Shown: positions 39,987 to 46,260, counted from the first letter of the stretch. The stretch is DNA of 46,260 nt from Candidatus Eiseniibacteriota bacterium (GCA_052390515.1 JBQTGV010000093.1:1-46260); one strand, 5' to 3'. The notes: generated from the sequence alone by a model not told the origin. Numbers and translations: made by a program.

Positions 39987-41465
39987 CTACAGGACGTGCA
40001 GCTCCAGGACGCGGCGGAAGTGATGCCCGGCGATCGCCAGGGAGACCATGCGGGACAGCAGCGTGGGGCGGAACGCGAGCGTCCACAGCAGCAGACGCCA
40101 GTAGTGCCAGCGCTCCTCGCCCAGGACGCCGAGCCGCCCCGCCGCCCTCGCGAACGCGAGGACCTGCTGCAGGTCGATCGGCGGTCGCACGGTGGGCGCG
40201 CGGTAGGCGCGCAGGAACGTGCGCAGCCGCCGGTAGTAGTGCTCCGGGGTGTAGATGTGATTCATCAGAGCCCGGTAGTCGTGGCGCAGCGTCTCCAGGC
40301 CCATCCGCGGCACGATGTTCGTCGTGCCGTCGACGTTGTCGCCGGTCGTCTCGCCGCGCAGCCGCCCCTCCGCCCGCATCCGCTCGTAGAGCCGCGTGCC
40401 CCGCGGCGCCTGCAGCATCCCGACCATTGCGGTGACGATGCCGCTGCGCTGGATGAAGTCGATCTGACGCCGAAAGGTGGACGGAGTGTCGCTGTCGAAG
40501 CCCACGATGAAGCCGGCGTAGACCTCGAGGCCGCTGCGCTGCATGCGGCGTACGTCGTCCACCAAGTCGCGCCCGAGGTTCTGCTTCTTGTTGCAGGCCG
40601 CCAGCGCTTCGTCGTCCGGCGTCTCGATGCCGATGAACACGGAGTCGAAACCGGCCTCGGTCAACATGCCCATGAGCTCACCATCGTCGGCCAGGTCCAT
40701 CGACACCTGGCTGGTGAAGGGCACGTGGCGTTTCTCGCGCCGCCAGTCGATGAGCGCCGGGAGAAGCGCGGTCTTCAGCAGGCGCCGGTTGCCGATGAAG
40801 TTGTCGTCCACGAAGAAGACCGTGCCGCGCCAGCCGAGCGCGTGCAGACGGTCCAGCTCGGCGACGACCTGCGCGGCGGTCTTCGCCCGAGGTCGATGGC
40901 CGAGGAGGGCGGTGACGTTGCAGAAGTCGCAGTCGTACGGACAGCCGCGGCAGAACTGGACGCTCATGGTGGCGTAGCGCTTCAGGTCCACCAGCTCCCA
41001 GAGCGGGATCGGGGACGCGTGCATGTCGGCGTACTCGCCGGCTCGATAGACGCGCCGGGCGTGCCCCGCGTGCAGATCCGCCAGGAACGGCGGCAGCGAG
41101 ATCTCGGCCTCTCCCAGCACGAGATGATCCACGTCGGCGAAGGCCTCGGGTTCCGCGGTGAAGAGCGGACCGCCGGCGACGACCCGGACGCCTGCGCGCC
41201 GGCAGCGGGCGATGACGTCGCGGGTCGAGCGGCGTTGCACGGCCATCGCGCCGACGAGGGCCAGGTCGGCCCAAGCGAGGTGCGCGTCGGTCAGCGGCTC
41301 GACGTTCAGGTCGACGAGGCGCTTGTTCCAGGACTCGGGCAGCATCGCGGCGACGGTCAGCAGGCCGAGCGGGGGGAGTGAGGCGCGGCGGCGGATGAAG
41401 CGCAGCGCGTGCTTGAAGCTCCAGAACGTGTCCGGAAACTCCGGGGACAGCAGAATGACGTTCAT
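39987..41465 (-). CDS. B12-binding radical SAM protein (DUF4070-type C-terminus)
   Basis: 'PPLGLLTVAAMLP', 'VVAGGP', CxxxCxxC 'RGCPYDCDFC', 'FFVDDNFIGN', 'FIVGFDSD'. Confidence 0.9.
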   Translation of the reverse strand: MNVILLSPEFPDTFWSFKHALRFIRRRASLPPLGLLTVAAMLPESWNKRLVDLNVEPLTDAHLAWADLALVGAMAVQRRSTRDVIARCRRAGVRVVAGGPLFTAEPEAFADVDHLVLGEAEISLPPFLADLHAGHARRVYRAGEYADMHASPIPLWELVDLKRYATMSVQFCRGCPYDCDFCNVTALLGHRPRAKTAAQVVAELDRLHALGWRGTVFFVDDNFIGNRRLLKTALLPALIDWRREKRHVPFTSQVSMDLADDGELMGMLTEAGFDSVFIGIETPDDEALAACNKKQNLGRDLVDDVRRMQRSGLEVYAGFIVGFDSDTPSTFRRQIDFIQRSGIVTAMVGMLQAPRGTRLYERMRAEGRLRGETTGDNVDGTTNIVPRMGLETLRHDYRALMNHIYTPEHYYRRLRTFLRAYRAPTVRPPIDLQQVLAFARAAGRLGVLGEERWHYWRLLLWTLAFRPTLLSRMVSLAIAGHHFRRVLELHVL

Positions 41466-41633: not shown

Positions 41634-41963
41634 ATGAGCACCGTCGCCCTGCCGGAAGTGCGCCTCGAGAGAGCGGCCGCGCCCGTGGTCGTGCACGCGC
41701 CGCTGTGGCAGGTCGTGCTGCTCGACGACGACGAGCACACGTACGACTACGTGATCGAGATGCTGCAGTCTGTTTTCGGGCACTCGCGCGAGACCGCGTA
41801 CCTGATGGCCTGCGAGGTGGACGCCGCCGGCCGCGTCATCGTGGACACGACGTCGCGGGAGCGCGCCGAGCTGAAGCGGGACCAGATCCACGCGTACGGC
41901 GCGGACTGGCGGATCACGCGTTGCGCGGGGTCGATGTCGGCGACGATCGAGCCGGTCGAGTGA
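41634..41963 (+). CDS. clpS: ATP-dependent Clp protease adaptor ClpS
   Basis: 'WQVVLLDDDEHTYDYVIEMLQSVFG', 'EVD..GR.IV', 'MSATIEP'. Confidence 0.88.
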   Translation: MSTVALPEVRLERAAAPVVVHAPLWQVVLLDDDEHTYDYVIEMLQSVFGHSRETAYLMACEVDAAGRVIVDTTSRERAELKRDQIHAYGADWRITRCAGSMSATIEPVE

Positions 41964-43047
41964 TCACCGCCATCACCGAGCGCAGGACGACCCAGGCCGG
42001 CAGGGCGAAGTCCACCGCGTAGCGCGTGATCGGCGCCATCTGCCGGTCGAGCCGCACCGAGAGAGTCAGCCCCAGGAAGAGGAGCCCCGGACCGGTCACC
42101 AGCTCCTTGCCCCCCGGAACGCGGGCGCGCACGACGAGCAGCAGCCCGACGAGCGCCGCGGCGTGCAGGATCGACGGCAGCGCCACCGACTCCAGGAAAA
42201 GCTCCGGGGCGAACGTCGCCGCGACGAGCAGGACGAAGGGCACCTCCGAGAACACCGCGCCGTGCGGGATGCGCCAGGCCGGCTCGTCCGCTCGCCCGAG
42301 GACCGCGCCGAAGCCGAGCGCGGCGAAGGGCGGCCACAGATCCAGGCGGAACGCCGCGGCGCCGGCGGCGACGAGCACGACCGGTACGACGACGCGGCGC
42401 GGGATCCGGGCGCGCCGTGACAACGAGAGCGCGACGACGGCGGCGGCCACGCCGAGCGCGCCCGATTCGCCCAGCTCCAGGATCGGGTCGCGCCAGAGCA
42501 CGCTCGGTCCGACCTGGTGCCAGAGGAGCGAGGGCGTGAAGGACCACACTGCGCCGACCAGACCCGACGCCACCAGGAAGAGGCTGCCCGCGTCGGCCGG
42601 AGCTCGACCGCGGATGTCGCGGAGCGCGAGCAGCGGGAACACGGCGAACACCGACGCGAGGGGCAGCGTGAAGCGGGCGAACGTGCGCTGCGGTTCGGCG
42701 CCGGGCAGGAACCGGGGCAGCAGGAGGGAGCCGAGCACGAGCGTCGCCCCGGCCAGCGCCAGCGGCGGGAGGGACCGCCGGAGCATCTCGCCGAGGGGAA
42801 GCCGGAGCATCCCCTGCCCGAGGCGATACCCGAGCACCCCCAGCAGCGCGGCGACGTGGATCATCACTCCCGGGAGGGTCTGCTGCGCGGCCGAGACGGG
42901 GACCGCGTCGAAGCCCGGCCGCCCGAGGAAGAGCCCCACGACCAGGGCGAGCACCACGGAGGGGAGACGGACCAGCCGGGCGAGCCCTCCACAGAGCACC
43001 GCCGCCAGCAGGACGAGGCCGTAGGCGAGAATCCCCGAAAGGACCAC
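41914..43047 (-). CDS. Polytopic membrane protein, possibly cation:proton antiporter-like
   Basis: Ten or more hydrophobic segments; N-terminal 'LARLVRLPSVV..LVVGLFLG' resembles CPA N-termini; otherwise divergent. Confidence 0.55.
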   Translation of the reverse strand: MVLSGILAYGLVLLAAVLCGGLARLVRLPSVVLALVVGLFLGRPGFDAVPVSAAQQTLPGVMIHVAALLGVLGYRLGQGMLRLPLGEMLRRSLPPLALAGATLVLGSLLLPRFLPGAEPQRTFARFTLPLASVFAVFPLLALRDIRGRAPADAGSLFLVASGLVGAVWSFTPSLLWHQVGPSVLWRDPILELGESGALGVAAAVVALSLSRRARIPRRVVVPVVLVAAGAAAFRLDLWPPFAALGFGAVLGRADEPAWRIPHGAVFSEVPFVLLVAATFAPELFLESVALPSILHAAALVGLLLVVRARVPGGKELVTGPGLLFLGLTLSVRLDRQMAPITRYAVDFALPAWVVLRSVMAVITRPARSSPTSTPRNA

Positions 43048-43160
43048 CGGGCGCTCAGGAGACCCGGCGGCCCGGGATCATGCCGAGGCCCCGGCGGCCG
43101 ACTTGAAGGGCACCCTCCGTACTTGCGAGAATGGTGCCTCTGCACCCAGGCTGCGAATCG

Positions 43161-44258
43161 ATGCGCACTGCCCCCCTCGCCTTCGCCCTGCTCACCGTGC
43201 CGTTCGCGGCGTCCGCGGTGACGTGGGTCGTCCCCGACTCGGTCCCGACCGTGGGCGGGGCGCTCGCGCTGGCCGGCTCCGGCGACTCCGTGGTCGTCGG
43301 ACCCGGAACCTACCCCGAGGTCGTCGACATGGTCGACGGCGTCGTGCTGCTCGCCGCGGATCCCGAGAATCGCCCCGTCCTCGACGGCGGAGGAGCCGGG
43401 ACGCCGCTGACCGCGCAGTTCTGCAGCACCGGAACCGTGGTGTCGGGCTTCGTCTTCGCCAACGGCGTATCCGTCGCGCTCGGCGGTGGAGTGTACTTGA
43501 ACCGGTCGGTGATGCAGATCCTCGACTGCCGTTTCGCGAACAACTCCGCCGCGCACGGCGGCGGGCTCGGCGCGGACGCTTCGGCTTTCGTGCTCGCCGG
43601 CTGCGAGTTCGAAGGGAACTCGGCCGCCCAGACGGGCGGCGCCGTCTCCGTCACCGGACTCGGATCTCCGTCCCTCACGGGCTGCACGTTCCGCGGCAAC
43701 AGTGCGCTCGTGGGCGGGGCCGTCGCGGTGCGCAACGGCTCCACACCGATCATCTCCGCGTCGCTGCTGGACGGGAACCAGGCCGATCAGGGCGGAGGCC
43801 TCTGGTACGACTTCTTCACGGGCGGATCGCTCTCCGGCTGCACGCTCGCGTTCAACGACGCGACGTCGGGCCTCGGGGCGGGAGCGTTCCTCAACTCGCT
43901 GGCGACGCCGGCGCTCTCGACCTGCATCTTCGCGTTCGGAGTCGGCGGCGCGGGGCTGCACACCGTCGCGGGCGCGGCCCCGACCTACAGCTGCAACGAC
44001 CTCTTCGGGAACGCCGGCGGCGACGCGCTCGGGGCGGGAGTCGACCTCGGCGGGAACGTGTTCGCCGACCCGCTGTTCTGCGGCGCGCAGACCGGTGTCT
44101 TCACGCTGCAGGATACGTCGCCCTGCCTCGCGGCGAACTCGGGCGGGTGCGGGCAGATCGGAGCGTTCGACGCCGGCGGATGTGGGGCGGTCGGCGCCGG
44201 TTCGGAGATGGCCGTGGCCAGCTGGGGAGCGGTGAAGAGCCGGTATCGCGGAAGATGA
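43161..44258 (+). CDS. Secreted right-handed parallel beta-helix protein with SWGxxKxxY tail
   Basis: Signal peptide; '[11 protein letters not shown]', repeated 'C.F..NSA..GG.'; 'DPLFC', 'SPCL'; ends [13 protein letters not shown]. Confidence 0.85.
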
Positions 44259-45021: not shown

Positions 45022-45081
45022 AGGTCCCGATTCGAGGGAGTGGATGACGATGGCCGAGCGTCGTCACCGTAGGGGGGAACC

Positions 45082-45759
45082 GTGGACGTCGATCTCCAGG
45101 TGAAGCTCGCGGTCTACCGCGCCGCAGCCGAGAACGGCCGGCCACCCGCGCCGAGCCGGGTCGCGTGGGAGGTGGGCGTCGACCTCGACGAGCTTCGCCT
45201 CTCCTACGCGCGGCTCCGCGAGCGACGGCTCCTCGTGCTCGAGCCCGACGGCCTCTCCATCCACATGGCGCCGCCCTTCTCCGGCGTCCCCACGCAGCAT
45301 CTCGTGCGCGTGGACGGCGTGGACTATCACGCGAACTGCGCCTGGGACGCGCTGGGGATCCCCGCGGCGCTGCACCGCGCGGGCACCGTCGTCTCCCGCT
45401 GCGAGCAGTCCCGCGAACCGCTGCATCTCGAGATCGGACCCGACGGTCCCGAGCCGTCGACCTGGCTCTTCCACTGCGTCGTTCCCGCCGCGCGGTGGTG
45501 GGAGGACATCGTCTTCACCTGAGGCAACATGCTCTTCTTCCGGTCGGAAGAGCTCATCGACTCGTGGTGCGCGGCGGGGAGCCGGCCGCGTCGCCCCTCG
45601 GTCCGGATGGATCAGCTCTGGCGAATGGCCGTCACCTGGTACGGAACGCGGCTCACGCCGGAGTCCCGGCGGCCCGCCCCCGGCGAGATGCGTGGGATCT
45701 TCGCCGCCATCGGTCTCGAGGGCGAATTCTGGGATCCGGAGTCGGACGCCTTCCGCTGA
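45082..45759 (+). CDS. MerB-like (organomercurial lyase family) protein, 225 aa, probable selenoprotein (TGA 45520-45522 = Sec147)
   Basis: ORFs 45082-45522 and 45529-45759 are in the same frame, separated only by TGA-GGC-AAC. 'ANCAWDAL' matches MerB C96/D99, 'SRC' matches C117, and 'VFT*GNMLFFRSEE' matches the MerB 'SFCCHVHFFAS' region. Confidence 0.8.
45531..45553 (+). promoter_or_regulatory. Putative bacterial SECIS hairpin
   Basis: GCUC-UUC-UUCC-GGUC-GGAA-GAGC begins 9 nt after the UGA. The apical GGUC lies at +23..+26 counting U of UGA as +1, close to the GGUC position in the E. coli fdhF SECIS. Confidence 0.65.
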
Positions 45760-45776
45760 CGCCGGCCGGCGGCGCC

Positions 45777-46259
45777 TCAACGCCTCACGAGAGTGACCGT
45801 CCGCGCCTGCGTCTCGCCGCCTGCCTCGAGGCGGACGAAGTACGTCCCCGCGACCACGTTTCTTCCCGAGCCGTCGCGGCCGTCCCAGCGGAACCGGTGA
45901 TCTCCGGCGCCGAAGTCCGCGCGCGGACGGGCCAGCACCCGGCGCCCGGCGACGTCGAACACCGTCACCGCCACCGCGGCCGGAGCGCTCAGCGCGAACG
46001 GAACCTCCGTCCAGGCTCCGAACGGATTCGGCAGAGCCGCATCGAGGCGCAGGCGCGCCGGGCCATCGGCCACGTCAGGCGCCCCGGTCGGTCCGAAGCC
46101 GCGGATCACGAGCACGTCGCGGGGCGGAAGGCCGGTGAGGATTGACACCGACGTCAGCACCGAATCCGTGGCGACGTCCACGACGCGAATGCCCGGATCC
46201 TCCACGTTGAGGACGCCCGAGCTCGCGTTCGCCGGGAAATAGAGCAGTCCGGTGGTCGC
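45777..46259 (-). CDS. C-terminal part of a protein with FlgD-Ig/CTD domain (5' end outside window)
   Basis: Frame open to the window edge; 'PNPFG...VFDVAGRRV...WDGRDGSG..V.AGTYFVRL......RTVTLVR'; preceding 'IRVVDVATDSVL' is beta-propeller-like. Confidence 0.8.
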   Translation of the reverse strand, partial: ATTGLLYFPANASSGVLNVEDPGIRVVDVATDSVLTSVSILTGLPPRDVLVIRGFGPTGAPDVADGPARLRLDAALPNPFGAWTEVPFALSAPAAVAVTVFDVAGRRVLARPRADFGAGDHRFRWDGRDGSGRNVVAGTYFVRLEAGGETQARTVTLVRR

Positions 46260-46260
46260 G

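Follow-up and report, generated by a model that had tools for sequence, protein, structure and literature searches.

A probable selenocysteine-containing member of the MerB superfamily, interrupted by an in-frame UGA at a catalytic position, in Candidatus Eiseniibacteriota and other soil bacteria

To our knowledge, MerB is the only well-understood enzyme of carbon–mercury bond cleavage. Here we describe a gene of Candidatus Eiseniibacteriota bacterium that very probably encodes a selenocysteine (Sec) relative of MerB, the Sec being specified by an in-frame TGA at positions 45520–45522 of the DNA analysed (GCA_052390515.1 JBQTGV010000093.1:1-46260; this whole stretch of 46,260 nucleotides is referred to as the window). 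That the protein both contains Sec and carries out lyase chemistry we regard as likely, and that organomercurials are its physiological substrate is a tentative proposal, which may well prove wrong.

The catalytic triad of MerB consists of C96, D99 and C159 (Haft & Gwadz, bioRxiv 10.1101/2022.07.06.499078). The same preprint states that MerB binds other metals at this site, with a single substitution making it a copper binder, and describes SaoL, a MerB-like 'selenocysteine-assisted organometallic lyase' (NCBIfam NF040728). In SaoL, about 50 residues follow a C-U motif, and the gene lies in an SAO locus of nine genes, among them those for the ABC transporter SaoP/SaoB and the efflux pump SaoE. 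Its hosts are given as strict anaerobes only (Firmicutes, spirochaetes and deltaproteobacteria), and the names Gemmatimonadota, Acidobacteriota and Verrucomicrobiota have no occurrence in the preprint. In two reviews (PMC9312934 and PMC13188914, the latter from 2026), SaoL is the sole family listed under MerB.

An earlier note on this DNA had described two adjacent open reading frames (ORFs) that share one frame, are split by a single TGA and give a 225-residue protein on read-through; the sequence, the ORF list and the translation all agree with this description. An in-frame TAG (45070–45072) closes the frame upstream of the GTG at 45082, from which a 146-codon ORF runs up to the TGA; the frame is then open from 45523 to a second TGA (45757–45759), and a 76-residue ORF (45529–45759) is nested in this downstream part. 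The GTG start agrees with the aligned N-termini of homologs. The number of codons before the TGA is 146 in 67 of 81 homologous loci, and 78 codons follow it in 59 of the 81. The read-through product carries C86 and D89 (in NCAWD), C107 and the sequence context WWEDIVFT-U-GNMLFFRSEE; the first three residues, which the note had reported as intact, are so both in the translation and in a phmmer alignment to MerB. The split annotation that was predicted from standard gene callers, a truncated MerB plus a 76-residue piece, is also found in public data, where a 146-residue call of this gene (P0002) stands in the protein database and orphan C-terminal pieces of 76–79 residues form entries of their own.

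The read-through product matches the complete MerB family model of Pfam (PF03243) with 97.8 bits over model positions 1–126 of 126, for a gathering score of 27 bits. The separate halves score 62.6 bits (model 1–80) and 16.9 bits (model 87–126), and the full length of the model is covered only on read-through. Alignment to the solved MerB structures with phmmer places C86 and D89 on Cys96 and Asp99. The TGA falls on Cys159, the leading residue of the Cys159-Cys160 pair, which is the second catalytic Cys column named in the note. In an 80-sequence alignment, C86 is invariant, D89 is at least 90% conserved and the Sec column is preceded by Thr in every sequence. An AlphaFold2 model built from this alignment has a mean predicted local distance difference test score of 96.3 and a predicted template modelling (TM) score of 0.92; it forms one compact domain in which the part after the UGA is integrated. 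In a Foldseek search of the PDB, the 11 top matches are all MerB or MerB2 (E from 7e-11 to 1e-6), with about 195–200 columns aligned, about 20% identity and TM scores of 0.56–0.70 normalised to the target, and the next match has an E value of 0.14. The 60 N-terminal residues show a weak Foldseek likeness to winged-helix domains (E about 0.3).

Fifteen residues 3′ of the UGA are invariant (M150, F153, S155, E156, W162, W180, W186, Y187, L191, R197, I206, F207, G211, F216 and W217) in an alignment (A3) of 79 read-through sequences and one Cys form from genome G030, from which L055 (identical to L054) and L086 (with a long C-terminus) were left out. Read through, the gene encodes a complete MerB-fold protein with a C-D-U triad at the MerB catalytic positions. 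With Cys and Asp present and the predicted Sec in place of Cys at the third position, the site is chemically analogous to that of MerB, not identical.

We searched a collection of 5.8 billion proteins and obtained 3484 matches at E ≤ 0.001. Among the 120 best, 116 span just 63–65% of the query, indicating that their gene calls stop at the UGA column. A scan of species-representative genomes yielded 478 confirmed relatives; counts for close loci refer to the best 80 of these 478 and one relative (G011) from the source's own family. All 81 close loci have TGA at the column, and none has TAA or TAG. Among the 80 complete close homologs, the terminators are mixed (31 TGA, 25 TAG, 24 TAA); L085, which is cut by the end of its contig, was left out. 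Divergent loci were collected with queries P0240 and P0235, which are 38–39% identical to the source protein. This gave 101 loci in two clades, mainly from Chloroflexota and Actinomycetota, 24 of which were not parsed by the motif pattern owing to insertions or cut loci and are excluded from all counts; among the 77 parsed, 76 have TGA at the column and one has TGC. All 157 further relatives with a stop codon at this column (81 close and 76 divergent) therefore have TGA. Record titles of the carriers among the best 80 of 478 name Gemmatimonadota, several classes of Acidobacteriota, Verrucomicrobiota, Candidatus Eisenbacteria, Chloroflexota, Anaeromyxobacteraceae, Planctomycetaceae and a few others. 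The gene represents a large soil-bacterial family whose members are truncated at the UGA codon in database gene calls.

Five of the loci (L037, L046, L057, L085 and L089) come from short-contig bins labelled Cryosericum, Clostridia, Alphaproteobacteria, Streptosporangiaceae or Patescibacteria. These odd labels may reflect mis-binning and not the true hosts, and the phylum range should be taken with care. L050 comes from a genome flagged as unpublished, and no count hinges on it.

To survey full-length relatives, we ran HMMER exhaustively over 1.84 billion cluster representatives (1681 matches at E ≤ 0.001) and classed the best 150. Of these, 74 end at residue 146, 54 span the column, four are orphan C-terminal pieces (matching residues 150–225) and 18 are other fragments. 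The residue at the column among these best 150 is Cys in 32, Trp in three, Ser in three, Ala in two, and His, Val, Pro and Tyr in one each. A number of the rows without Cys seem to be frameshifted or badly aligned. A relative in genome G030 (locus L023, 31–34% identity) has an unbroken DNA frame with TGT (Cys) at the column. Such alternation of TGA and Cys at one column is the classical pattern of a genuine selenocysteine position and points to one here. Like the source protein, the Cys-type relatives (L023, L163 and 30 other representatives) are full length, with 220–235 residues, the same architecture and 27–40% identity to it. They differ in the Cys at the column and, in 12 of 32, in a second ligand motif that reads C-x-x-C instead of C-x-x-D; L023 and L163, both read at the DNA level, also differ in being without the Sec insertion sequence (SECIS) hairpin described below, with four of seven pairs left and loops CUUC and AGAC. 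L163, from a metagenome-assembled genome (MAG) of Chloroflexia, is 52% identical to the Sec-type query P0240. The position of both Cys-type genes near Sec-type clades suggests a recent switch, either from Sec to Cys or from Cys to Sec.

A quick family tree of 107 representatives was built from the N-terminal 146 columns; 6 of its 104 inner branches are well supported, and its 'Sec' labels derive from calls that end at the column. It hints that the source protein may belong to a clade without Cys forms and that at least three Sec/Cys switches may have occurred elsewhere; we draw no order of events from it. Four close relatives with full-length calls stand apart: P0004 has Trp and P0029 has Arg at the Sec column, and P0007 and P0008 are locally scrambled there. 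All four are on contigs of about 1–4.5 kb and are known as protein calls only. Point mutations, frameshifts or the reading of TGA by a different code could account for them.

The source genome (4.27 Mb in 223 contigs, 95% complete) contains the machinery for Sec insertion. SelA (450.9 bits), SelB (371.3 bits) and SelD (427 bits) all score above curated cut-offs, with frames free of internal stops, and tRNA-Sec (selC) is found above cut-off with 71.8 bits and the ARAGORN anticodon tca. Among carriers, SelA and MerA were searched for in the genomes that hold the first 50 of 80 close loci. SelA is above cut-off in 46 of the 50, compared with 29 in a sample of 61 relatives, and the four misses are assemblies of 2.4–3.5 Mb. 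In the sample of 61, all four genomes with any relative of the gene have SelA.

Bases +13 to +33 after the UGA are nearly invariant across phyla. Codons +5 to +8 (Phe-Phe-Arg-Ser) are TTC in 82 of 82 sequences, TTC in 81, CGG in 82 and TCG in 82, with an entropy of 0–0.10 bit. The remaining conserved degenerate codons between −84 and +78 have 0.46–2.26 bits, and other conserved Arg and Ser columns use four to six codons. RNAalifold gives a consensus helix of 7 bp (columns 16–22 with 27–33) closed by a GGUC tetraloop; it begins 12 nt 3′ of the UGA, with a UGA-to-loop spacing of 19 nt, and is encoded by codons F152-F153-R154-S155-E156-E157. In known bacterial SECIS elements, SelB recognises a GGUC-type loop some 20 nt 3′ of the UGA. 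The minimum-energy fold of the source sequence itself, a shifted 8-bp register with a 7-nt loop, was dropped as the functional structure, only the 7-bp/GGUC register being conserved in homologs.

We examined covariation in an alignment (A4) of 150 distinct sequences, which combines the source with the 76 TGA rows from the divergent clades, two second sites of double-Sec genes and 71 of the 81 close loci; L103–L107 and duplicates were left out to keep to 150 rows. Across this set, 96.3% of cells pair, compared with 47–68% when the partner is slid by one to three columns. Two-sided changes occur in four of the seven pairs (42 cells): U-A to C-G at 16–33 (35 sequences) and 19–30 (2), C-G to U-A at 21–28 (4) and C-G to A-U at 22–27 (1). 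In the divergent loci L146, L159, L183 and L186, the change at 21–28 to UUU with AAA or AAG retains the pair but converts Glu to Lys. Of the 150 loops, 134 read GGUC and 11 read AGUC. Taken together, these features identify the 7-bp/GGUC hairpin as a predicted SECIS within the coding sequence. In the FFRSEE motif, UUC (Phe) is the reverse complement of GAA (Glu), which lets the peptide and the hairpin arms share bases; if the prediction holds, this is a clear case of a protein motif and an RNA signal using the same bases.

The conserved TGA could in principle be accommodated without Sec. Translation might stop there and start anew at an ATG three codons further on, with later assembly of the two pieces. 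This ATG (45529) is present in 71 of 72 own-clade rows, with GTG in the remaining one, and gene callers yield exactly these two pieces. However, the corresponding codon is ATC, ATT or ATA in 41 of the 76 divergent rows, 31 of which are without an in-frame start-like codon within 14 codons, and the six bases before the ATG are variable and not Shine–Dalgarno-like. Moreover, the stop is always TGA and falls on a catalytic Cys that full-length relatives retain, so that a split would delete this ligand, and the frozen synonymous sites form a SelB-type hairpin; a split gene is therefore very improbable. Still less probable is a reading of TGA as a standard amino acid, be it Trp or Gly by an alternative code or near-cognate read-through. 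Trp does stand at the column in three full-length database relatives, but these are known as protein calls on contigs about 1 kb long, whereas TGA terminates this gene and 31 of 80 homologs, the SelA, SelB and SelD frames have no internal stops and relatives carry Cys, not Trp. Least credible of all is a pseudogene or an assembly or sequencing error, for which the bare stop codon alone would speak, given TGA at the same column in 157 more genes of independent assemblies, strong purifying selection on the downstream residues and a confident full-length model. All three readings were rejected on these grounds. The replacement of the catalytic Cys by Sec, as put forward in the earlier note, thus finds support in the homolog column (TGA in 81 of 81 close and 76 of 77 divergent loci, Cys in 32 distant full-length relatives), in the presence of selA, selB, selC and selD, and in the conservation of the gene. 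Conservation across many phyla and constraint on the downstream protein exclude the sequencing error or isolated nonsense mutation that the note had mentioned, and the three homologs with Trp do not refute the Sec reading, being protein records that are consistent with TGA read under another code.

On the Sec reading, we propose the following mechanism. The SelA/SelB/SelD/tRNA-Sec system would decode UGA 45520–45522 as Sec, directed from within the coding sequence by the 7-bp hairpin with its GGUC loop. Sec147 would replace Cys159 of MerB and join Cys86 and Asp89 in a MerB-type triad, with a soft metal or metalloid held between the Cys86 thiolate and the Sec147 selenolate. Asp89 would protonate the leaving carbon as in MerB, and the carbon–metal bond would be cleaved by protonolysis. 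Organomercurials are the likeliest candidates for its substrate. The enzyme would work on its own in the cytoplasm, with neither a mer operon nor an SAO locus around its gene. It could alternatively be a real selenoprotein that is not a lyase and whose Cys-Sec pair binds, senses or passes on a soft metal or metalloid (such as Hg, Cu, Se or As) or serves in thiol/selenol redox chemistry. This would fit the general lack of MerA in carriers and of a conserved partner gene, the scores below the curated MerB equivalog cut-offs, the weak winged-helix likeness of the N-terminal 60 residues and the binding of other metals by MerB, including the copper binder made by one substitution (bioRxiv 10.1101/2022.07.06.499078). 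On the other hand, the proton donor Asp89, needless for mere binding, is retained in at least 90% of the 80 sequences along with C86 and U147, and the entire MerB core is conserved, the model matching MerB over about 195–200 columns. We therefore consider a non-lyase role rather improbable and retain the lyase assignment.

Several points weigh against a selenoprotein lyase with a role in mercury metabolism. MerA is above cut-off in 2 of the 50 carriers searched and not in the source genome, and the flanking ORFs examined include no mer gene. The curated MerB equivalog models NF009710 and NF033555 score 47.3 and 40.7 bits, below their cut-offs of 193 and 200 bits. SelA is common in the source's own family regardless (10 of 11), which makes co-occurrence weak evidence within the lineage. 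As for the hairpin, helix changes in the source's own clade are confined to A-to-G substitutions in the 3′ arm that preserve G-U pairing, with no double compensatory change, and compensatory changes emerge only once the divergent clades are added. None of 500 shuffles reaches the observed pairing on four of five measures, but such pair-count controls can be beaten by related sequences or by a structure that was built on them. The hairpin has no unusual stability, with a folding energy of −17.7 kcal/mol for the 61 nt that follow the UGA (z = 0.75) and 161 of 200 shuffles folding as well or better; stability is not used as evidence here. An Rfam scan of positions 45300–45800 at E values up to 10 gave no SECIS family and one chance match to an internal ribosome entry site. 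By our own reasoning, product release from an Hg-Se bond would be harder than in MerB. Sec insertion, metal binding and lyase activity are all things that we infer from the sequence.

The features of the gene and its neighbours are collected in Table 1. Its neighbours in the window comprise a short-chain dehydrogenase (SDR), a beta-helix protein, ClpS, a B12-radical S-adenosylmethionine (SAM) enzyme and a protein with a FlgD_ig domain; the beta-helix and FlgD-type genes flank the SDR/MerB-like pair, and neither is a conserved neighbour of the selenoprotein gene. The longest ORF for the radical SAM enzyme reaches 41891 and overlaps the clpS gene on the opposite strand; its true start is thus probably internal. 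We clustered 475 flanking ORFs from 82 loci (about 3 kb) by blastp and found no cluster in more than five loci; these ORFs are crude stop-to-stop calls, many of them probably spurious in the GC-rich genomes. Pfam models were run on 144 of the 156 nearest flanking ORFs (12 were left out), and the repeats are scattered: DoxX and DUF899 three times each, and GreA-like, MacB/FtsX and GNAT twice each. No recurring transporter set is found among these 144, the two MacB/FtsX-type permease ORFs belonging to L080 and L091. An SAO neighbourhood was not found by neighbour clustering and Pfam, which did not include a scan with the SAO NCBIfam models themselves.

Table 1. Features of the selenoprotein gene candidate and of neighbouring genes (positions in the window)
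Feature	Position	Strand	Remarks
Candidate selenoprotein gene, MerB-fold lyase-like	45082..45759	+	225 codons and terminator, one in-frame UGA
G-rich Shine–Dalgarno-like run (45072–45079) and GTG start (45082–45084)	45072..45084	+	Read from the sequence; putative ribosome-binding role
Pfam MerB (alkylmercury lyase) domain	45277..45645	+	Residues 66–188, across the UGA; 97.8 bits
Cys86 codon TGC (45337–45339) and Asp89 codon GAC (45346–45348)	45337..45348	+	Equivalents of MerB Cys96 and Asp99
Cys107 codon	45400..45402	+	Aligned to the Cys of MerB motif SSHC; at least 90% conserved
UGA as predicted selenocysteine 147	45520..45522	+	Equivalent of MerB Cys159
Predicted SECIS hairpin	45535..45552	+	5′ arm 45535–45541 (UUCUUCC), GGUC tetraloop 45542–45545, 3′ arm 45546–45552 (GGAAGAG)
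Terminator TGA	45757..45759	+	Homologs end at the equivalent place
B12-binding radical SAM protein, C-terminal DUF4070	39987-41459	-	Pfam 44.6, 70.2 and 123.6 bits
ClpS	41634-41963	+	
377-residue hydrophobic ORF, probably a membrane protein	41914-43047	-	No Pfam match at E ≤ 1e-5
Right-handed beta-helix protein	43131-44258	+	
Protein ending in a FlgD Ig-like domain	45777-46260	-	Cut by the end of the window

In hundreds of species-level genomes and thousands of metagenomic proteins, the gene is annotated as a truncated 146-residue "hypothetical" and an orphan fragment. With no curated NCBIfam model reaching its cut-off and the gene calls split, the selenoproteomes of Gemmatimonadota, Acidobacteriota, Verrucomicrobiota, Eisenbacteria and Chloroflexota are under-counted. 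A selenolate relative of MerB in aerobic soil lineages, outside mer and SAO loci, raises the question of its substrate and of how a product would be released from an Hg-Se bond. It is conceivable, if unlikely, that these proteins form a mer-independent carbon–metal(loid) cleavage family of common soil phyla, either as the missing methylmercury demethylase of soils without mer operons or as a lyase for another organometal(loid), such as tin, lead, arsenic, selenium or tellurium compounds, in which the selenolate would have been selected for very high affinity to substrates present in traces. Should methylmercury be demethylated, the family would be relevant to mercury cycling in soils where mer genes are scarce.

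Compared with MerB and MerB2 (EC 4.99.1.2; PDB 1S6L, 3F0O, 3F0P, 3F2F and 5C17), the source protein has the fold, the Pfam family and the catalytic positions in common. It differs in the predicted Sec for Cys159, in the replacement of the adjacent Cys160 by Gly148, in its low identity of about 20% and in its location outside a mer operon. Also related are the double-Sec paralogs of genome G017, which are 25–28% identical to the source protein. They belong to the same superfamily and share the UGA at the C159 column, with the 7-bp hairpin in register and a loop starting with G, but they have a second UGA at the C96 column and Glu for Asp89. The two genes are located at L024:277-900 (−) and L025:1441-2010 (+); the hairpins of their second sites have 7/7 bp and the loops GUUC and GUGG, and the stretch after the first TGA folds too. 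Sec and Cys forms seem to have replaced each other repeatedly within the superfamily, to the point of both ligands being Sec, and such a series, if true, would be a natural system for studying what Sec adds to metal–carbon chemistry.

The closest comparison is with SaoL, which the earlier note had rightly named as a precedent to be considered: a MerB-like selenoprotein is already in print, but this gene fails every SaoL-defining feature tested. A full-text literature search, the coverage of which excludes supplements and the journal version of the preprint, returned no MerB-like selenoprotein other than SaoL. Both proteins have the MerB fold, Sec at the MerB Cys159 position (predicted here), the equivalents of C96 and D99, and database calls cut at the UGA. 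The SaoL model NF040728 gives the source protein 36.2 bits for a cut-off of 140, in a partial match to residues 35–118. The source protein has T-U where SaoL has C-U, and about 78 residues follow the Sec instead of about 50. Its carriers are MAGs labelled Gemmatimonadota, Acidobacteriota, Verrucomicrobiota, Eisenbacteria and Chloroflexota, unlike the strict anaerobes reported for SaoL. With the NF040728 and MerB equivalog cut-offs missed, a T-U motif and no SAO context, we therefore file the gene, undescribed in the literature searched, as a putative selenoprotein branch of the MerB superfamily that is distinct from both MerB proper and SaoL.

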